NCBI RefSeq assembly: GCF_000027125.1
Contig: NC_017626.1
Direction: 5' to 3' (one strand)
DNA length: 64,000 nt
Source of the DNA: Escherichia coli 042
GTDB taxonomy: Bacteria > Pseudomonadota > Gammaproteobacteria > Enterobacterales > Enterobacteriaceae
The notes beneath the pieces are model-generated. The model ran no database searches, was not told the origin of the DNA, and was given only the letters and a program-made list of their open reading frames with translations. Below, piece after piece: positions 4,007 to 47,352 of this stretch (positions within the stretch are counted from its first letter, which is position 1; each line of letters begins with the position of its first letter). The position numbers and the translations under genes were made by a program.

Positions 4007-5152
4007 ATGAGCAAGACATTTGCCCGCAGCAGCCTGTGTGCGCTCACCATGACAATAATCACCGCTCATGCCGCCGAACCGCCTACCAATTTAGATAAAC
4101 CGGAAGGGCGACTGGATATTATCGCCTGGCCGGGATACATCGAACGCGGACAAACTGATAAACAATACGACTGGGTAACGCAATTCGAAAAAGAGACAGG
4201 CTGCGCGGTGAATGTGAAAACCGCCGCGACTTCCGATGAAATGGTCAGTCTGATGACCAAAGGGGGTTACGATCTGGTTACAGCATCCGGCGATGCCTCG
4301 CTGCGCCTGATTATGGGCAAACGCGTGCAGCCGATTAATACCGCATTGATTCCCAACTGGAAAACGCTCGATCCGCGCGTGGTTAAAGGCGACTGGTTTA
4401 ACGTTAGTGGCAAAGTTTATGGCACACCCTACCAATGGGGGCCGAACCTGTTGATGTACAACACTAAAACCTTCCCGACGCCGCCGGATAGCTGGCAAGT
4501 GGTCTTTGTTGAGCAGAATCTGCCGGACGGCAAGAGCAATAAAGGCCGCGTACAGGCCTATGATGGCCCTATCTACATTGCGGACGCTGCGTTGTTCGTT
4601 AAAGCCACTCAGCCGCAGTTGGGCATCAGCGATCCGTATCAACTCACCGAAGAACAGTACCAGGCGGTGCTGAAAGTGCTGCGCGATCAACACAGTTTGA
4701 TCCATCGCTACTGGCATGACACGACCGTGCAAATGAGCGATTTCAAAAACGAGGGTGTGGTTGCTTCCAGTGCCTGGCCCTATCAGGCCAACGCCCTGAA
4801 AGCCGAAGGCCAGCCTGTCGCTACCGTTTTCCCGAAAGAGGGCGTTACCGGTTGGGCTGACACCACCATGCTACATAGCGAAGCGAAACATCCGGTTTGC
4901 GCCTACAAATGGATGAACTGGTCATTAACGCCAAAAGTGCAGGGCGATGTGGCGGCCTGGTTTGGCTCGTTACCAGTAGTGCCGGAAGGGTGTAAAGCCA
5001 GTCCGTTATTAGGCGAGAAAGGTTGTGAAACAAACGGTTTTAACTATTTCGATAAAATCGCCTTCTGGAAAACGCCTATAGCAGAAGGGGGCAAGTTTTT
5101 TCCCTACAGTCGCTGGACGCAGGATTACATTGCCATTATGGGCGGTCGCTAA
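4007..5152 (+). CDS. ydcS: Periplasmic polyamine-binding protein of ABC transporter (PotD/PotF family)
   Basis: 381 aa with signal peptide; first gene of ydcSTUV-patD cluster. Confidence 0.9.
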   Translation: MSKTFARSSLCALTMTIITAHAAEPPTNLDKPEGRLDIIAWPGYIERGQTDKQYDWVTQFEKETGCAVNVKTAATSDEMVSLMTKGGYDLVTASGDASLRLIMGKRVQPINTALIPNWKTLDPRVVKGDWFNVSGKVYGTPYQWGPNLLMYNTKTFPTPPDSWQVVFVEQNLPDGKSNKGRVQAYDGPIYIADAALFVKATQPQLGISDPYQLTEEQYQAVLKVLRDQHSLIHRYWHDTTVQMSDFKNEGVVASSAWPYQANALKAEGQPVATVFPKEGVTGWADTTMLHSEAKHPVCAYKWMNWSLTPKVQGDVAAWFGSLPVVPEGCKASPLLGEKGCETNGFNYFDKIAFWKTPIAEGGKFFPYSRWTQDYIAIMGGR

Positions 5153-5169
5153 CTTCGCTGGGGTGTTTT

Positions 5170-6183
5170 ATGACGTACGCAGTGGAGTTTGACAACGTCT
5201 CGCGGTTGTACGGTGACGTGCGCGCAGTAGATGGCGTCAGTATTGCGATAAAAGATGGTGAATTCTTCTCTATGCTGGGGCCGTCCGGCTCCGGCAAAAC
5301 CACCTGCCTGCGCCTGATTGCTGGCTTCGAACAGCTTTCCGGCGGGGCTATCTCTATCTTTGGTAAACCCGCCAGCAATCTGCCACCGTGGGAGCGGGAC
5401 GTGAATACCGTCTTTCAGGACTACGCGCTATTTCCGCATATGTCGATTCTTGACAACGTGGCCTATGGGCTGATGGTCAAAGGCGTGAATAAAAAGCAGC
5501 GGCATGCGATGGCGCAAGAGGCGCTGGAGAAAGTGGCGTTGGGGTTTGTACAGCAACGTAAACCGTCACAACTTTCTGGTGGTCAGCGCCAACGGGTTGC
5601 TATTGCCAGAGCACTGGTGAATGAACCGCGCGTATTGCTGTTGGATGAACCGCTCGGCGCGCTGGATCTCAAATTGCGTGAGCAGATGCAACTTGAGCTG
5701 AAAAAGCTGCAACAGTCTCTCGGTATCACTTTTATCTTCGTTACCCACGATCAGGGCGAAGCGTTATCGATGTCCGATCGTGTTGCGGTTTTCAATAATG
5801 GACGCATTGAGCAGGTCGATTCCCCGCGTGACCTCTATATGCGCCCGCGCACGCCGTTTGTTGCCGGATTCGTCGGGACATCGAATGTTTTTGATGCACT
5901 GATGGCAGACAAACTTTGTGGCATGACGGGAAGCTTCGCCCTGCGACCGGAACATATCCGCTTCAACATCCCCGGCGAAGTGCAGGCCAATGGCACGATC
6001 CAGGCGGTGCAATATCAGGGCGCAGCGACTCGTTTTGAACTGAGACTGAACGGTGGTGAAAAACTGCTGGTGAGTCAGGCCAATATGACAGGCGAAGAAC
6101 TGCCTGCCACGCTCACGCCCGGACAACAAGTGATGGTTTCCTGGTCGCGTGATGTGATGGTGCCGCTGGTTGAGGAGAGGTGA
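5170..6183 (+). CDS. ydcT: ABC transporter ATP-binding protein (PotA-like)
   Basis: 337 aa; Walker A GPSGSGKTT, ABC signature LSGGQRQR, Walker B LLLDEP. Confidence 0.9.
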   Translation: MTYAVEFDNVSRLYGDVRAVDGVSIAIKDGEFFSMLGPSGSGKTTCLRLIAGFEQLSGGAISIFGKPASNLPPWERDVNTVFQDYALFPHMSILDNVAYGLMVKGVNKKQRHAMAQEALEKVALGFVQQRKPSQLSGGQRQRVAIARALVNEPRVLLLDEPLGALDLKLREQMQLELKKLQQSLGITFIFVTHDQGEALSMSDRVAVFNNGRIEQVDSPRDLYMRPRTPFVAGFVGTSNVFDALMADKLCGMTGSFALRPEHIRFNIPGEVQANGTIQAVQYQGAATRFELRLNGGEKLLVSQANMTGEELPATLTPGQQVMVSWSRDVMVPLVEER

Positions 6184-7125
6184 ATGGCGATGAACGTATT
6201 GCAATCACCTTCACGTCCAGGAGTTGGAAAGATATCCGGCTTTTTCTGGCGAAAACCAGGACTGGGGCTGTTTTTGTTGCTGCTTGGCCCGCTAATGTGG
6301 TTTGGCATTGTCTATTTCGGCTCGCTGCTAACGCTGTTATGGCAGGGCTTTTATACTTTTGACGATTTCACCATGTCGGTAACGCCGGAACTGACGCTGG
6401 CGAATATCCGTGCGCTGTTTAATCCGGCGAATTACGACATCATTCTCCGCACGCTGATTATGGCTGTGGCAGTCACTATCGCCAGCGCCATTCTGGCTTT
6501 TCCAATGGCGTGGTATATGGCGCGCTATACCAGCGGGAAAATGAAAGCGTTTTTTTATATCGCGGTAATGTTGCCGATGTGGGCGAGCTACATTGTTAAA
6601 GCCTATGCCTGGACGTTATTGCTGGCGAAAGATGGTGTGGCGCAGTGGTTTTTACAACATCTGGGGCTGGAACCACTGCTGACAGCGTTCCTTACATTAC
6701 CAGCGGTGGGCGGTAACACGCTGTCAACTTCCGGGCTGGGGCGCTTTCTGGTGTTTCTCTATATCTGGCTGCCGTTCATGATCCTGCCCGTGCAGGCGGC
6801 GCTTGAGCGTTTGCCGCCGTCATTGTTGCAGGCGTCGGCTGATCTTGGCGCACGTCCACGGCAAACCTTTCGCTATGTGGTACTGCCGCTGGCAATCCCG
6901 GGTATTGCCGCTGGCTCTATCTTTACCTTTTCACTCACACTGGGCGATTTTATCGTCCCGCAGCTGGTTGGCCCTCCAGGATATTTTATCGGCAATATGG
7001 TTTATTCCCAGCAGGGAGCGATTGGCAATATGCCGATGGCGGCGGCATTCACCCTGGTGCCGATTGTTCTCATCGCACTGTACCTGGCGTTCGTGAAACG
7101 TCTGGGAGCGTTCGATGCACTCTGA
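6184..7125 (+). CDS. ydcU: ABC transporter permease (PotB-like)
   Basis: 313 aa multi-pass membrane protein; start abuts ydcT stop. Confidence 0.9.
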
Positions 7126-7909
7126 ACGCGCACCGTTTTTCCTCAAACTGGCGGCCTGGGGCGGCGTGGTTTTCCTACATTTTCCCATTCTGATTATCGC
7201 CGCCTATGCGTTTAACACTGAAGATGCGGCGTTTAGTTTTCCACCGCAAGGCCTGACGCTGCGCTGGTTTAGCGTGGCAGCACAGCGCAGTGATATTCTT
7301 GAGGCTGTGACACTGTCACTTAAAGTGGCGGTGCTGGCGACATTAATTGCGCTGGTGTTAGGGACGCTGGCCGCTGCCGCGCTGTGGCGACGAGACTTTT
7401 TCGGCAAAAACGCCATTTCGCTGTTACTGCTGCTGCCCATTGCGCTGCCGGGTATTGTCACTGGTCTGGCGCTATTAACCGCCTTTAAAACCATCGATCT
7501 GGAGCCGGGATTTTTCACCATCGTGGTCGGTCATGCGACTTTTTGCGTAGTGGTGGTGTTTAACAATGTCATCGCCCGTTTTCGCCGCACCTCGTGCAGT
7601 CTGGTTGAGGCGTCAATGGATCTTGGGGCCAATGGCTGGCAAACCTTCCGCTACGTAGTGTTGCCGAATCTCAGTTCGGCGCTACTGGCAGGAGGAATGC
7701 TGGCGTTTGCCTTGTCGTTCGATGAAATCATCGTGACGACCTTTACGGCAGGTCATGAACGAACGTTACCGTTGTGGTTGCTCAATCAGCTTGGGCGACC
7801 GCGTGATGTACCGGTAACCAACGTGGTGGCACTGCTGGTTATGTTGGTAACAACCTTGCCGATCCTGGGAGCCTGGTGGCTAACCCGCGAAGGCGACAAT
7901 GGTCAATAA
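7115..7909 (+). CDS. ydcV: ABC transporter permease (PotC-like)
   Basis: 264 aa membrane protein, overlaps ydcU by 11 nt. Confidence 0.9.
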
Positions 7910-7930
7910 CCACTGATACAGGAATATGCT

Positions 7931-9355
7931 ATGCAACATAAGTTACTGATTAACGGAGAACTGGTTAGCGGCGAAGGGGAGAAACAGCCTGTCTATAATC
8001 CGGCAACGGGGGAAGTTTTACTGGAGATTGCCGAGGCATCTGCAGAGCAGGTCGATGCCGCTGTTCGTGCAGCAGATGCAGCATTTGCCGAATGGGGGCA
8101 AACCACGCCGAAAGCGCGTGCGGAATGCCTGCTGAAACTGGCGGATGTAATCGAAGAAAATGGTCAAGTTTTTGCCGAACTGGAGTCCCGTAACTGTGGC
8201 AAACCGCTGCATAGTGCGTTCAATGATGAAATTCCGGCGATTGTCGATGTCTTTCGCTTTTTCGCCGGAGCAGCTCGCTGCCTGAATGGTCTGGCGGCAG
8301 GTGAATATCTTGAAGGTCATACTTCGATGATCCGTCGCGATCCGTTGGGGGTCGTGGCTTCGATCGCACCGTGGAATTATCCGCTGATGATGGCTGCGTG
8401 GAAACTGGCTCCGGCGCTGGCGGCAGGGAATTGCGTAGTGCTCAAACCATCAGAAATTACCCCGCTGACAGCGTTGAAGTTGGCAGAGCTGGCGAAAGAT
8501 ATCTTCCCAGCTGGCGTGATTAACGTGCTGTTTGGCAGAGGCAAAACGGTGGGCGATCCGCTGACCGGACATCCCAAAGTACGGATGGTGTCACTGACGG
8601 GCTCTATCGCCACTGGGGAACACATCATCAGCCATACCGCGCCGTCCATAAAGCTTACTCATATGGAACTTGGAGGCAAAGCGCCAGTGATAGTTTTTGA
8701 TGATGCGGATATTGAAGCGGTGGTCGAAGGTGTACGTACTTTTGGCTATTACAATGCCGGACAGGATTGTACTGCGGCTTGTCGGATCTACGCGCAAAAA
8801 GGTATTTACGATACGCTGGTGGAAAAACTCGGTGCTGCAGTGGCAACGTTAAAATCTGGTGCGCCGGATGACGAGTCTACGGAGCTTGGACCTTTAAGCT
8901 CACTGGCGCATCTCGATCGCGTCAGCAAAGCAGTAGAAGAGGCGAAAGCGACAGGGCACATCAAAGTGATCACTGGCGGTGAAAAGCGCAAGGGTAATGG
9001 CTATTACTATGCGCCGACGCTACTGGCTGGCGCATTACAGGACGATGCCATCGTGCAAAAAGAGGTATTTGGTCCGGTAGTGAGTGTTACGCTCTTTGAC
9101 AATGAAGAACAGGTGGTAAACTGGGCAAATGACAGCCAGTACGGACTTGCATCCTCGGTATGGACGAAAGATGTGGGCAGGGCGCATCGCGTCAGCGCAC
9201 GGCTACAATATGGTTGTACCTGGGTCAATACCCATTTCATGCTGGTAAGTGAAATGCCGCACGGTGGGCAGAAACTTTCTGGTTACGGCAAGGATATGTC
9301 ACTTTATGGGCTGGAGGATTACACCGTCGTCCGCCACGTCATGGTTAAACATTAA
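7931..9355 (+). CDS. patD: Gamma-aminobutyraldehyde dehydrogenase (aldehyde dehydrogenase family)
   Basis: 474 aa; ALDH family features (ELGGK, catalytic Cys region GQDCTAA). Confidence 0.9.
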
Positions 9356-41832: not shown

Positions 41833-42933
41833 TTAGAACTGATAGGTAATGCCCGTTGCGACGATGTTATCGGTGCGAATATCTACGGCACGGGTAAAGT
41901 CGCTTTCATCAATCAGGTTGATTTTATAATCAACATAGGTCGACATATTTTTGTTGAAGAAATACGTCGCACCAACGTCGATATACTCAATCATGTCCTG
42001 GTCGCCGTAGCGGCCCAGATCTCTGCCTTTCGATTTCAGGTAAGCGAGTGATGGGCGCAAGCCGAAGTCGAATTGATATTGTGCCACTACTTCAAAACTT
42101 TGTGCTTTGTTAGAGATATAACCATCGCCATAGGTGGTCATGTTTAATGTTTCAGCGTAATTAGCTGCAAAGTAGATGTTGTTGGCATCATATTTTATAC
42201 CTGTAGCCCACAGTTCTGCATTCTTACCGGAGGCATTGAGAGGATTAGCAGCGGCTCTTTCCTGCGCATTTGTCCGATCGGATTTGGTATACACCGCACC
42301 GATACCAAAGCCATCATAAACATAAGTTGAGGAGATACCGAAACCGTCACCATTGGCACGCGTGTAGTCAGCACCATAAAGATGACCATTGTCAGTGCGT
42401 TCATTTTTGCCTTGATATTGCGCGGCAAAGTTCAGACCTTCAATTAAGCCGAAGAAATCGTAGTTGCGATAGGTTGCCACACCGGTAGTACGGTATGTCA
42501 TGAAGACATCTTTCTGACTCCAGGTATCGCCACCAAATTCTGGCAACATATCGGTCCATGAACCAATGTCATAGCCGACACCGTAGTTACGACCATAGTC
42601 CAGAGAGCCAAATTCACTAATTTTTAAACCTGCATAGGCCAGACGGGTCTTGTTACCGCGCGAGCCGTTGGCTTCATCGTTATAGCCTTTAAAATCATAT
42701 TCCCAGTGACCAAAACCAATCATTTGATCATTGATTTGCGTTTCTCCTTTAAAGCCGAGACGGGCATAAGTTTTATCACCATCGTCACGCTTATCATCAG
42801 TAAAATAACGTAGAGCGGTAACCTTGCCATAAAGGTCGAGTTTATTACCATCCTTGTTATAGACTTCGGCAGCGTGTGCTACGTTCGCAGCTAACAAACC
42901 AGTTACAACCACCGCAACTATTTTTAATTTCAT
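41833..42933 (-). CDS. General porin of the OmpC/OmpF family (intact; yddL-like)
   Basis: 366 aa with signal peptide …AANVAHA, ends in aromatic Y-Q-F, Gly/Tyr-rich beta-strand pattern. Confidence 0.8.
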
Positions 42934-43191
42934 TTAACAGAATCCTTTTAATTATCGTTAAACGTATTTTCTAAACGAATTTTAAACGGCGTCATTTATA
43001 AATGACATACTGTTTTTAAAATAGAATGGTGATTAAAAACAATGAGAAAAATAGATGAAATAATATTATTTATCGATATGTGATCGAAGTCGAAATGAAA
43101 TATAAGGTGAACTACTGGTATTTGAAATTTATTTTTTTATATTGTCGGAATTTATCTGATTAACTGCCGGGCCGTAGACCCGACAATTATT

Positions 43192-44073
43192 TTAGCCACG
43201 ACGTGTCGCCAGCCAGCAGAGCAGGGAACCGCCGCAGACCATTAGCGCGCCTTGCCAGAACGAGAACGACAGCGGGGCGCTGAGCAGCACGGCTGCAAGC
43301 GCTGAGGAAAGGACGGGCGTAAAATACGAACCTACCGCCATAATGGTGACGTTGCCATGTAATATACCGACGTTCCATGCAGCATAAGCAAATCCTAAGG
43401 TAAATGCCGCAGAGATGAGTTTAATCATGACTGGCGTGCTAAATACCATTTCTGGTTGTGGCGTGAGAAAATAGTAAACCCACAGACTTGCTCCCGTTAG
43501 CAGGACAAAAACGGTAATTCCGTTAAATCCGCGTGCGTATTTATTCGTTACTGTGCAGTAGGCTGCCCAGATAAACGCACCAATAAACGCCAGGAAATAA
43601 CTCAATGGGCTGGTGGTGATATTATTGATGATTTCATCATAATGTAACCCATTGTCACCACCTAACACCCAGCAGACGCCAACCAGGGCTAATAATAATC
43701 CTGGTACAATCAGCCAGTTGGTTTTCTGACCATTAAACAGAATGGCAAAGAGAATTGTCAGGCTGGGCCACAGATAGTTCACCATACCCACTTCAATCGC
43801 CTGATGACGGGTCGCCGCATATCCTAAGGAAAGCGCCAGACAGATTTCATAGCTGACGAATAACAGACACCCGGCGAGTAAATAGCCTTTCGGGATCTGC
43901 CGAATACGCGGAAATCCAACCGTGAAGATTAACAGCAGCCCGCTTAATGAATAGATAGCAGCTGCGCCGCCGACCGGGCCGAGCCCCTCACTGACACCGC
44001 GAATCAATCCTACCATCGTGCTCCACAGGACGATCGCTATTAGCCCTATGAGCGTTGCTTTTTGTCGTGTCAT
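43192..44073 (-). CDS. yddG: Aromatic amino acid exporter (DMT superfamily)
   Basis: 293 aa, 10-TM EamA-type. Confidence 0.9.
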   Translation of the reverse strand: MTRQKATLIGLIAIVLWSTMVGLIRGVSEGLGPVGGAAAIYSLSGLLLIFTVGFPRIRQIPKGYLLAGCLLFVSYEICLALSLGYAATRHQAIEVGMVNYLWPSLTILFAILFNGQKTNWLIVPGLLLALVGVCWVLGGDNGLHYDEIINNITTSPLSYFLAFIGAFIWAAYCTVTNKYARGFNGITVFVLLTGASLWVYYFLTPQPEMVFSTPVMIKLISAAFTLGFAYAAWNVGILHGNVTIMAVGSYFTPVLSSALAAVLLSAPLSFSFWQGALMVCGGSLLCWLATRRG

Positions 44074-44304: not shown

Positions 44305-47300
44305 ATGGACGTCAGTCGCAGACAATTTTTTAAAATCTGCGCGGGCGGTATGGCTGGAACAACGGTAGCGGCATTGGGCTTTGCCCCGAAGCAAGCACTG
44401 GCTCAGGCGCGAAACTATAAATTATTACGCGCGAAAGAGATCCGTAACACCTGCACATACTGTTCCGTAGGTTGCGGGCTATTGATGTATAGCCTGGGTG
44501 ATGGCGCGAAAAACGCCAGAGAAGCGATTTATCACATTGAAGGTGACCCGGATCATCCGGTAAGCCGTGGTGCGCTGTGCCCGAAAGGGGCCGGTTTGCT
44601 GGATTACGTCAACAGCGAAAACCGTCTGCGCTACCCGGAATATCGTGCGCCAGGTTCTGACAAATGGCAGCGCATTAGCTGGGATGAAGCATTCTCCCGT
44701 ATTGCGAAGCTGATGAAAGCTGACCGTGACGCTAACTTTATTGAAAAGAACGAGCAGGGCGTAACGGTAAACCGTTGGCTTTCTACCGGTATGCTGTGTG
44801 CCTCCGGTGCCAGCAACGAAACCGGGATGCTGACTCAAAAATTTGCCCGCTCCCTCGGGATGCTGGCGGTAGACAACCAGGCGCGCGTCTGACACGGACC
44901 AACGGTAGCAAGTCTTGCTCCAACATTTGGTCGCGGTGCGATGACCAACCACTGGGTGGATATCAAAAACGCTAACGTCGTGATGGTGATGGGCGGTAAC
45001 GCTGCTGAAGCGCATCCCGTCGGTTTCCGCTGGGCGATGGAAGCGAAAAACAACAACGATGCAACCTTGATCGTTGTCGATCCCCGTTTTACGCGTACCG
45101 CTTCTGTGGCGGATATTTACGCACCTATTCGTTCCGGTACGGACATTACGTTCCTGTCTGGCGTTTTGCGCTACCTGATCGAAAACAACAAAATCAACGC
45201 CGAATACGTTAAGCATTACACCAACGCCAGCCTGCTGGTGCGTGATGATTTTGCTTTCGAAGATGGCCTGTTCAGCGGTTATGACGCTGAAAAACGCCAG
45301 TACGATAAATCGTCCTGGAACTATCAGTTCGATGAAAACGGCTATGCGAAACGCGATGAAACACTGACTCATCCGCGCTGTGTGTGGAACTTGCTGAAAG
45401 AGCACGTTTCCCGCTACACGCCGGACGTCGTTGAAAACATCTGCGGTACGCCAAAAGCAGACTTCCTGAAAGTGTGTGAAGTGCTGGCCTCCACCAGCGC
45501 GCCGGATCGCACAACCACCTTCCTGTACGCGCTGGGCTGGACGCAGCACACCGTGGGTGCGCAGAACATCCGCACCATGGCGATGATCCAATTGCTGCTC
45601 GGTAACATGGGTATGGCTGGTGGCGGCGTGAACGCATTGCGTGGTCACTCCAACATTCAGGGCCTGACCGACTTAGGTCTGCTCTCAACCAGCCTGCCGG
45701 GTTATCTGACGCTGCCGTCAGAAAAACAGGTTGATTTGCAGTCGTATCTGGAAGCGAATACGCCGAAAGCGACGCTGGCTGATCAGGTGAACTACTGGAG
45801 CAACTATCCGAAGTTCTTCGTTAGCCTGATGAAATCTTTCTACGGTGATGCTGCACAGAAAGAGAACAACTGGGGCTATGACTGGCTGCCGAAGTGGGAC
45901 CAGACCTACGACGTCATCAAGTATTTCAACATGATGGATGAAGGCAAAGTCACCGGTTATTTCTGCCAGGGCTTTAACCCGGTTGCGTCCTTCCCGGACA
46001 AAAACAAAGTGGTGAGCTGCCTGAGCAAGCTGAAGTACATGGTGGTTATCGATCCGCTGGTGACTGAAACCTCTACCTTCTGGCAGAACCACGGCGAGTC
46101 GAACGATGTCGATCCGGCGTCCATTCAGACTGAAGTATTCCGTCTGCCTTCGACCTGCTTTGCTGAAGAAGATGGTTCTATTGCTAACTCCGGTCGCTGG
46201 TTGCAGTGGCACTGGAAAGGTCAGGACGCGCCGGGCGAAGCGCGTAACGACGGCGAAATTCTGGCGGGTATCTACCATCATCTGCGCGAGCTGTACCAGG
46301 CCGAAGGTGGTAAAGGCGTAGAACCGCTGATGAAGATGAGCTGGAACTACAAGCAGCCGCACGAACCGCAATCTGACGAAGTAGCTAAAGAGAACAACGG
46401 CTACGCGCTGGAAGATCTCTATGATGCCAATGGCGTGCTGATTGCGAAGAAAGGTCAGTTGCTGAGTAGCTTTGCGCATCTGCGTGATGACGGTACAACC
46501 GCATCTTCTTGCTGGATCTACACCGGTAGCTGGACAGAGCAGGGCAACCAGATGGCTAACCGCGATAACTCCGACCCGTCCGGTCTGGGGAATACGCTGG
46601 GATGGGCCTGGGCGTGGCCGCTCAACCGTCGCGTACTCTACAACCGTGCTTCGGCGGATATCAACGGTAAACCGTGGGATCCGAAACGGATGCTGATCCA
46701 GTGGAACGGCAGCAAGTGGACGGGTAACGATATTCCGGACTTCGGCAATGCCGCGCCAGGTACACCAACCGGACCGTTTATCATGCAGCCGGAAGGGATG
46801 GGACGCCTGTTTGCCATCAACAAAATGGCGGAAGGTCCGTTCCCGGAACACTACGAGCCAATCGAAACGCCGCTGGGCACTAACCCGCTGCATCCGAACG
46901 TGGTGTCTAACCCGGTTGTTCGTCTGTATGAACAAGACGCGCTGCGGATGGGTAAAAAAGAGCAGTTCCCGTATGTGGGTACGACCTATCGTCTGACCGA
47001 GCACTTCCACACCTGGACCAAGCACGCGTTGCTCAACGCAATTGCTCAGCCGGAACAGTTTGTGGAAATCAGCGAAACGCTGGCGGCGGCGAAAGGCATT
47101 AATAATGGCGATCGTGTCACTGTCTCAAGCAAGCGTGGATTTATCCGCGCGGTGGCGGTGGTAACGCGCCGTCTGAAACCGCTGAATGTAAACGGTCAGC
47201 AGGTTGAAACGGTGGGTATTCCAATCCACTGGGGCTTTGAGGGTGTCGCGCGTAAAGGTTATATCGCTAACACTCTGACGCCGAATGTCGGTGATGCAAA

Positions 47301-47352
47301 CTCGCAAACGCCGGAATATAAAGCGTTCTTAGTCAACATCGAGAAGGCGTAA
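44305..47352 (+). CDS. fdnG: Formate dehydrogenase-N alpha subunit (selenoprotein; in-frame UGA = Sec at 44890-44892)
   Basis: Track ORFs 44305-44892 and 44941-47352 are in the same frame, split only by TGA; Tat signal RRQFFK; sequence around Sec …ARV-U-HGPTVASLAPTFGRGAMTN. Confidence 0.9.
44893..44935 (+). promoter_or_regulatory. SECIS stem-loop directing selenocysteine insertion in fdnG
   Basis: Immediately 3' of the in-frame UGA; …CGGTAGCAAGTCTTGCTCC… can form a hairpin. Confidence 0.6.

Follow-up and report, generated by a model that had tools for sequence, protein, structure and literature searches.

An intact porin gene at the yddL position of Escherichia coli 042, the probable positional ortholog of Salmonella ompD

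Here, we report an analysis of a porin gene (positions 41833..42933, minus strand) in a 64,000-nucleotide stretch of Escherichia coli 042 (NCBI RefSeq assembly GCF_000027125.1, contig NC_017626.1), called the window below; positions are those of the window unless another genome is named. The gene lies where E. coli K-12 carries yddL. It is already catalogued as Z2239/ECs2076 of "O-island 62" in O157, and about 1,100 complete genomes have it annotated, with the label "porin OmpC" from the NCBI Prokaryotic Genome Annotation Pipeline (PGAP); public sources name the exact window protein "porin OmpC" or "porin protein LC." Z2239 of O-island 62 of enterohemorrhagic E. coli has been published, with yddL recognized as similar to its 5' end (Okeke 2011), and it has been shortlisted as a putative adhesin in published work. 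The window gene is intact and very probably encodes a porin of the classical trimeric, 16-strand, general-diffusion type; it would be the counterpart by position of Salmonella ompD, is reduced in K-12 to a stub by an ancestral deletion, and most likely serves as a minor or conditional porin. In the literature searched, no paper named ompD alongside yddL or O-island 62; reading the gene as an ompD ortholog, and its minor-porin signature, add modestly to what is known of it and are no discovery.

The locus and its porin gene

The locus runs narZ-narU, two leucine-rich repeat (LRR) genes, the porin gene, yddG, and fdnGHI. At the same place, K-12 MG1655 has yddJ (a pseudogene), yddK, and a 96-codon yddL (b1472). 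The porin gene and its flanking signals comprise the following features.

41833..42933, minus strand: porin coding sequence (ATG start, 366 codons plus stop, no internal stops)
42871..42933, minus strand: signal peptide, codons 1-21, with an AHA/A cleavage site (the mature chains of crystal structures begin at query residue 22)
42538..42555, minus strand: core of the loop L3 constriction, codons 127-132 (T-D-M-L-P-E), invariant columns in a 22-sequence alignment
42943..42947, minus strand: Shine-Dalgarno AAGGA, 9 nt before the ATG, read from the sequence
42934..43120, minus strand: 5' untranslated region and upstream region, alignable with the upstream regions of Salmonella and Citrobacter koseri ompD (mean column identity, 75%)
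42979..43008, minus strand: putative promoter ATGTCA-18-TAAAAT, predicted from a consensus scan and a three-species alignment
41788..41821, minus strand: intrinsic-terminator-like hairpin (9-bp stem, 6 GC pairs) with a T tract, starting 12 nt past the stop (terminator scan)

The predicted protein matched Pfam PF00267 (Porin_1) over the whole model (positions 1-337 of 337; E value, 2e-134; 448.6 bits against a cut-off of 23.7), and its residues 22-366 aligned over the full mature chains of solved porins at 59-60% identity (OmpK36 6rd3, E value 2.5e-127; OmpC 2j1n, E value 1.3e-126; also OmpF and PhoE). A full-length family match together with an uninterrupted open reading frame (ORF) of this size is far beyond chance. 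The sequence-only reading of this stretch had proposed a complete 366-amino-acid (aa) general porin at 41833-42933, with a signal peptide and a C-terminal aromatic residue, and the ORF, the Porin_1 match, and the solved-porin alignments bear this out. The same full-length alignments (Porin_1 and the functional porins OmpK36, OmpC, OmpF, and PhoE) revealed no frameshift, premature stop, or truncation.

Signal peptides are cleaved according to the established AXA rule, and the mature N terminus, AEVYNK, fits the AE(V/I)YNKDGNK of the family, as expected for a cleavable signal peptide. In the 22-sequence alignment, the constriction acids D128 and E132 (D113 and E117 of OmpF), the basic cluster K37, R58, R97, and R148 (K16, R42, R82, and R132 of OmpF), the L2 latch pair E87/R115, and Y364, Q365, and F366 of the C-terminal ...TYQF are all invariant; the PEFGGD motif of loop L3 runs on to codon 136. 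The roles of the constriction-zone residues are established from the OmpF and PhoE structures, and the C-terminal aromatic residue of porins is a signal for outer-membrane assembly.

An AlphaFold model built from the shallow 22-sequence alignment was poor (mean predicted local distance difference test [pLDDT] score, 60.8; below 50 in the N-terminal half), so the fold was assigned from sequence identity to solved structures, which predicts a 16-strand β-barrel. A Foldseek search with the low-confidence model returned OmpK36, OmpC, and OmpF at template modeling (TM) scores of 0.76 to 0.83, a coarse check of little independent weight. As a member of this family, the protein would be directed to Sec export by its 21-residue signal peptide and to assembly by the β-barrel assembly machinery (BAM) complex by its C-terminal ...YQF. 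The trimeric mature barrel would form a water-filled channel, passive for small hydrophilic solutes and probably narrowed by loop L3 (PEFGGD, D128/E132) opposite the basic cluster K37, R58, R97, and R148.

Several residues set the protein apart from its relatives. Residue 147 (codon 42493-42495), directly before the eyelet residue R148, is a lineage-specific tyrosine where other OmpD-clade proteins have G, Q, or A; PhoE has K125 at this position, which we take to be an anion-selectivity determinant, and the tyrosine could affect pore size or selectivity. Further Escherichia-specific substitutions are H76, Y83, Y100, and Y158. A 365-aa protein from a metagenome contig in the European Nucleotide Archive (ENA) is OmpC/OmpN-like over its N-terminal ~120 residues and, from about residue 125, almost identical to the window porin (1 difference seen); either recombination in nature or a chimeric assembly would account for it.

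Positional orthology to ompD

The closest full-length protein outside Escherichia was the C. koseri porin (78% identity), followed by Enterobacter and Citrobacter porins (73-75%), Salmonella OmpD (72-74%), prophage NmpC/Lc (67-68%), and K-12 OmpN, OmpC, OmpF, and PhoE (59-63%). A neighbor-joining tree and the identities alike placed the window porin nearer the OmpD clade than OmpC, OmpF, PhoE, or OmpN. The synteny is anchored by the upstream neighbor, which is the same gene in the window, Salmonella, C. koseri, and Escherichia albertii:

43192..44073, minus strand: yddG, aromatic amino acid exporter (471 bits to NCBIfam NF008676; cut-off, 194)

The order in Salmonella and C. koseri is fdnI-H-G, yddG, the porin gene, and then gfa, smvA, smvR, narU, and narZ, and the window porin occupies the same slot in the same orientation relative to yddG. 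E. albertii also has a porin in this slot, split by the insertion sequence (IS) IS1, with the LRR genes absent. E. coli, Salmonella, and C. koseri can be aligned over about 190 nt upstream of the start codon, a stretch that takes in the Shine-Dalgarno block TAAGGATT, which the three-species alignment shows to be kept in both ompD genes. The synonymous divergence (pS) of the porin gene from Salmonella and Citrobacter (0.73-0.76) matches that of yddG (0.70-0.75) and narU (0.68-0.70), and by this comparison with flanking genes a xenologous replacement between genera was not supported. The GC content of the porin gene is 44-48%, that of the LRR genes 31-38%. On this evidence the window porin is, with high probability, the E. 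coli positional ortholog of Salmonella ompD. The assignment rests on position and upstream homology because NmpC is closer to Salmonella OmpD by sequence.

Salmonella OmpD and the window porin thus share slot, orientation, upstream region, Shine-Dalgarno block, length class, and the eyelet and C-terminal residues, at 74% identity. They differ in what lies downstream, which in E. coli is the two LRR genes (EspR1/EspR2) and not gfa-smvA-smvR, and in that the E. coli gene is present in only ~20% of genomes. The yddG-linked porin of C. koseri (also labeled "porin OmpC") has 366 aa and identical synteny. Z2239/ECs2076 of O157:H7 is the same gene, an allelic variant with 97.8% DNA identity and three differences (G93D, G183S, and R304I).

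NmpC/Lc of the lambdoid prophages DLP12 and PA-2 belongs to the same OmpD/NmpC/Lc clade (68% identity to the window porin) but is prophage borne, has another signal peptide and another locus, and is not syntenic with Salmonella OmpD. No phage genes were found in the flanks of the window porin, which are chromosomal (yddG, fdnG, and narU), so the prophage setting of NmpC/Lc does not apply here. The common statement is that ompD has its E. coli counterpart in nmpC (PMC3333887). Papers on an E. coli "ompD" (olaquindox in ATCC 25922, a genome-wide association study of avian pathogenic E. coli, and mucin binding) were not used, as they mean nmpC/Lc or leave the gene unspecified.

The description of the gene as OmpC family in the sequence-only reading holds in the broad sense: OmpC, OmpF, PhoE, and OmpN share the Porin_1 family, the fold, the eyelet chemistry, and 59-63% identity with the window porin. 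They are, however, paralogs at other loci, and ompC proper was rejected on two grounds: the gene sits at the yddG locus in the ompD slot, while the K-12 ompC locus adjoins micF, and the protein shares 61.8% identity with K-12 OmpC but 74-78% with the OmpD of Salmonella and Citrobacter. It falls below the equivalog cut-offs of OmpF (459 versus 583 bits) and PhoE (458 versus 599 bits) and narrowly passes the OmpC "subfamily" model NF007841 (495 versus 484 bits).

The link to yddG raises another account, that the porin is mainly an outer-membrane partner of the exporter YddG, an exit duct for toxic cations or aromatic compounds and not a general influx pore. The yddG-porin adjacency is kept across four genera, the terminator scan gave no hit in the space between yddG and the porin gene, and efflux of methyl viologen in Salmonella depends on all of smvA, yddG, and ompD according to Santiviago 2002 as cited in PMC4215857. 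We consider this account unlikely, in that most E. coli have yddG without the porin, a conserved upstream region belongs to the porin gene itself, the E. coli locus has neither smvA nor smvR, and general porins are passive channels, for which a role in efflux would be additional and not exclusive.

The K-12 deletion and the yddL stub

K-12-type genomes lack a segment of the porin locus, mapped by BLAST of the window against K-12, BL21, E24377A, and RM10410:

41118..42649, no strand: segment missing in K-12-type genomes

This 1,532-bp deletion takes out codons 95-366 of the porin gene together with the 5' part of the LRR gene beside it and fuses porin codon 94 to the interior of that LRR gene, which yields yddL. 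The first 93 residues of K-12 YddL are identical to those of the window porin and are followed by KNL and a stop, and the upstream region is shared (98% DNA identity). The sequence-only reading had taken the K-12 gene to be disrupted, and MG1655 yddL (b1472) is so: it is a 96-codon ORF cut short for want of window 41118-42649 and not an equally intact gene. Because the junction, with a microhomology of only ~3 bp, is identical in K-12, BL21, E24377A, and RM10410, the K-12-type deletion is a single ancestral event and not recurrent breakage. In a second K-12 deletion (window ~40145-40785), the two LRR genes became fused, here with 10 bp of microhomology. The junctions in BL21, E24377A, and RM10410 are exactly those of K-12.

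K-12 YddL cannot form a barrel. It was proposed in 2023 to be a small four-strand outer-membrane protein acting in the osmotic response (PMC9976479); given the mapped junction, this is less likely than a simple deletion remnant.

Prevalence, locus states, and selection

Across 5,426 complete E. coli genomes, the part of the porin gene that K-12 lacks was found in 1,118 (~20%), and 1,101 of these had 80% or more of that part. In 4,271, the upstream region and 5' stub were present, so that ~3,150 genomes (58%) have only a K-12-like stub. About 1,155 (21%) are without any porin sequence, as in MS 200-1, where narU abuts yddG. Intactness was judged by alignment spans and direct translation. Of 60 evenly spaced carriers, 58 had no indel in the 3' 814 nt of the gene, 1 was frameshifted (SCU-316), and 1 was partial. 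The gene was also disrupted in MRSN346647, by an IS903B insertion, and in THO-008, which has an 80% copy. The PGAP label was rejected as a proxy for intactness, since the frameshifted SCU-316 pseudogene is also labeled "ompC: porin OmpC," and protein-cluster size was rejected as a measure of prevalence, as the 9,017-member cluster includes unrelated LepA proteins. The 90%-identity cluster of the porin lists unrelated 603-aa LepA/EF4 proteins from Roseburia, which appears to be a database clustering artifact.

Five intact 366-codon alleles were compared, namely, those of the window, 118UI (identical to the window), O157:H7 PV15-279, AST85, and UTME-7. Pairwise ratios of nonsynonymous to synonymous divergence (dN/dS) were 0.02 to 0.11, with dS up to 0.16-0.18 and 3 to 4 amino acid differences. 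Because dN/dS among the alleles is this low, the E. coli gene is under strong purifying selection; a gene drifting to loss would look otherwise.

Our reconstruction is that K-12 and most phylogroup A/B1 strains inherited the one 1.5-kb deletion, leaving the 93-codon stub yddL, that other lineages lost the whole porin gene, and that ~20% of genomes keep it under strong purifying selection.

Expression level and small RNA sites

The codon adaptation index (CAI; approximate weights after the Sharp-Li table) of the E. coli porin gene is 0.38 and its effective number of codons (ENC), which is free of the table and agrees, is 51.4, that is, essentially no codon bias. Salmonella ompD (CAI, 0.68; ENC, 34.5) and C. 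koseri ompD (0.72 and 33.6) have the bias of major porins. The corresponding values for other E. coli porins are 0.82 and 29 for ompC, 0.66 and 37 for ompF, 0.36 and 46 for phoE, and 0.47 and 40 for the quiescent ompN. In the three-species alignment, the overlapping -35 hexamer TTGACA of Salmonella and C. koseri ompD is TTTATA in the window. A paper on sigma-70 by systematic evolution of ligands by exponential enrichment (SELEX) was rejected as promoter evidence, its yddL entry being an "internal promoter" between yddK and yddL.

In an O157 proteome from Dulbecco's modified Eagle's medium (DMEM), obtained by gel-based liquid chromatography-tandem mass spectrometry (GeLC-MS/MS), Z2239 ("putative outer membrane porin, O-island 62") had 2 peptide hits, which could be peptides shared with paralogous porins, against 123 for OmpC (PMC3420319). 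Salmonella OmpD exceeds all other porins of that bacterium in abundance, rises under anaerobiosis, and is absent from Salmonella Typhi (PMC4215857). The strong codon bias and high abundance that mark major porins of the ompD group are absent from the E. coli porin. From the CAI and ENC, the 2 versus 123 peptide hits, and the change of TTGACA to TTTATA, the E. coli porin is probably minor or conditionally expressed beside OmpC and OmpF.

The regulatory sites for small RNAs also differ between the E. coli gene and Salmonella ompD. The target position of MicC is that described for Salmonella ompD (PMC3333887).

42855..42866, minus strand: MicC target position, codons 23-26 (GAAGUCUAUAAC), with two mismatches to the MicC seed

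Pairing of MicC with ompD (RNAduplex) reached -15.8 kcal/mol in Salmonella and C. koseri, where at most 0.3% of shuffles were as good. Because of the two seed mismatches, RNAduplex found no MicC site in the window and O157 alleles, whose energy of -7.7 kcal/mol was the same as that of shuffled sequence; the AST85 allele has one mismatch at this position. The MicC site is a regulatory feature of Salmonella ompD and not a criterion of orthology. A candidate RybB site lies at the same position (+18..+27) but is weaker than that of Salmonella ompD (-13.7 versus -18.3 kcal/mol, with two G-U pairs; 7-10% of shuffles as good). The C. koseri gene keeps both the MicC and the RybB site. Full-length duplex folding of SdsR with the mRNA gave energies no different from those of shuffles.

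A change in permeability or a role as a phage or colicin receptor, which the sequence-only reading had put forward, is plausible, as it would be for any porin. The CAI of 0.38, the ENC of 51, the degraded -35 hexamer, and the 2 versus 123 peptide hits argue that the contribution of this porin is small under standard conditions.

Neighboring genes and other observations at the locus

Downstream of the porin gene lie two intact, AT-rich ORFs.

39086-40381, minus strand: LRR ORF, 431 aa, intact, AT rich
40404-41669, minus strand: LRR ORF, 421 aa, intact, AT rich

The two (GC content, 31-38%) are 29% identical to each other and have weak matches to type III secretion system (T3SS) effectors of the SlrP type. 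Both are intact in the window and in AST85. Their counterparts in O157 Sakai are catalogued as T3SS effectors, EspR1 (ECs2073) and EspR2' (ECs2074/2075, split), and PGAP names espR1 in O157; EspR2 is split in O157, and EspR1 is frameshifted in strain PV15-279. K-12 yddK and yddJ (K-12 locus 6385-7715 against window 39086-41117) are joined at the 10-bp microhomology ATAAxTCAAT and are fused, decayed remnants of the two LRR genes, not an inserted gene. The annotation of E24377A gives the fused LRR ORF as an intact coding sequence of ~443 codons (1,332 nt). For 118UI (locus 6705-7970, equal to window 40404-41669), PGAP gives only a 288-nt "incomplete hypothetical protein," although neither 118UI nor the window has any break in the 421-codon LRR ORF; the EspR2-like gene seems to have been missed by the annotation.

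On the other side of the porin gene, the 76 nt at 43115-43190 beside the yddG stop are kept even in genomes without the whole porin/LRR segment and contain a 7-bp inverted repeat (TTGTCGG...CCGACAA); they may be the end of the yddG transcript. Farther on (44305-47352, plus strand), fdnG is split in the ORF list by an in-frame TGA (44890-44892), which is the known selenocysteine codon of formate dehydrogenase-N; K-12 fdnG is annotated as a single 3,048-nt coding sequence. In E. albertii CP034213.1 (locus 5137-7014), the alignment pieces of the porin split by IS1 overlap by 7 nt at window 42683-42689, and a second IS1 and an RHS gene lie nearby, with narU seemingly shortened (390 aa).

Interpretation

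Without the marks of a highly expressed porin, the product of the window gene would be a minor or conditional porin alongside OmpC and OmpF. The simplest history is that of an ancestral yddG-linked ompD, downstream of which the E. coli lineage gained the LRR genes by insertion, in place of gfa-smvA-smvR, followed by deletions in most E. coli. This history revises the view of the whole of O-island 62 as recently acquired, which was drawn from a GC content of 33-36% and in which yddK was taken as an insertion (Okeke 2011).

Several points weigh against parts of this account. Prophage NmpC/Lc is closer to Salmonella OmpD (81%) than is the window porin (74%). The GC content of the porin gene (44%) is below those of its flanks (50-55%) and of Salmonella ompD (50%), and its pS between E. 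coli and E. albertii is 0.74 versus 0.51 for the adjacent yddG. The excess divergence from E. albertii and the within-species dS of up to 0.18 suggest old allelic lineages or recombination at the porin gene, and recombination or replacement within Escherichia is left room by these data. As to the product, the AlphaFold model is of low confidence (pLDDT, 61), the fold resting on sequence identity to solved structures, and the approximate CAI weights and possibly shared O157 peptides bear on the expression level.

The composition and divergence of the gene, its absence or truncation in ~80% of E. coli genomes, and the recent acquisition proposed by Okeke would also be in keeping with the arrival of the porin and both LRR genes as one horizontal island (O-island 62), which would make it a foreign extra porin and not the ancestral ompD. 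That is quite improbable. Salmonella, C. koseri, and E. albertii have a porin in the same slot and orientation after yddG, all without the LRR genes; the upstream region is homologous to that of ompD; the porin gene and the LRR genes differ in GC content (44-48% versus 31-38%); and at synonymous sites the porin gene has diverged from Salmonella and Citrobacter as far as the flanking genes have. The K-12 state, moreover, consists of deletions with mapped junctions and not of a missing insertion, and the low GC at third codon positions of the porin gene is explained by its lost codon bias.

Equally doubtful is a major porin in carrier strains that shapes permeability, antibiotic entry, and antigenicity as Salmonella OmpD would. 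In favor of this reading are the positional orthology to the most abundant porin of Salmonella, an intact eyelet, strong purifying selection, and a Shine-Dalgarno, promoter-like site, and terminator of the gene's own, but a CAI of 0.38 and an ENC of 51 are unlike those of any major porin, the orthologs of this gene included, the peptide hits in O157 grown in DMEM were 2 against 123 for OmpC, and the -35 hexamer is degraded. Least probable of all is a silent relic, intact by chance, making no functional porin, and heading to a pseudogene like yddL: repeated inactivation (the K-12-type deletion, whole-locus loss, the SCU-316 frameshift, IS903B in MRSN346647, partial copies, and IS1 in E. albertii), weak codon bias, degraded promoter and small RNA sites, and an AT-rich upstream region with possible H-NS silencing would fit it, but a dN/dS of 0.02 to 0.11 across alleles with dS up to 0.18 cannot be neutral drift, all pore-defining residues are kept, 58 of the 60 sampled carriers have no indel in the 3' 814 nt, and the protein was detected in the O157 proteome.

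A wider proposal built on the positional orthology to ompD is tentative. The true E. coli ompD may have been overlooked, owing to the K-12 stub, the labels "OmpC" and "Lc," the treatment of nmpC as OmpD, and the belief that OmpD regulation is Salmonella specific; it may have been demoted from a major to a low-expression porin, with loss of MicC control, and may now be a presence/absence polymorphism kept by opposing pressures. If so, those pressures would be phage, antibody, or antibiotic entry on one side and a niche-specific benefit on the other.

For specialists in porins there is no surprise here, as the gene is annotated, the putative porin is published, and the family is thoroughly studied. 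The record is nonetheless corrected on two counts: the positional ortholog of ompD in E. coli would be the yddL/Z2239 locus and not prophage nmpC, and K-12 yddK/yddJ are deletion remnants of two LRR genes and not an insertion. The PGAP name "porin OmpC" is misleading for the yddL/Z2239 porin gene. Models based on K-12 leave out an additional potential route for small hydrophilic antibiotics, and an additional potential surface antigen or phage receptor, that carriers possess; these carriers include O157:H7, O55:H7, O145, strains of the enteroaggregative E. coli 042 type, and many clinical isolates. The yddL/Z2239 porin could go unnoticed in work on porin loss and resistance in which ompC and ompF alone are scored.

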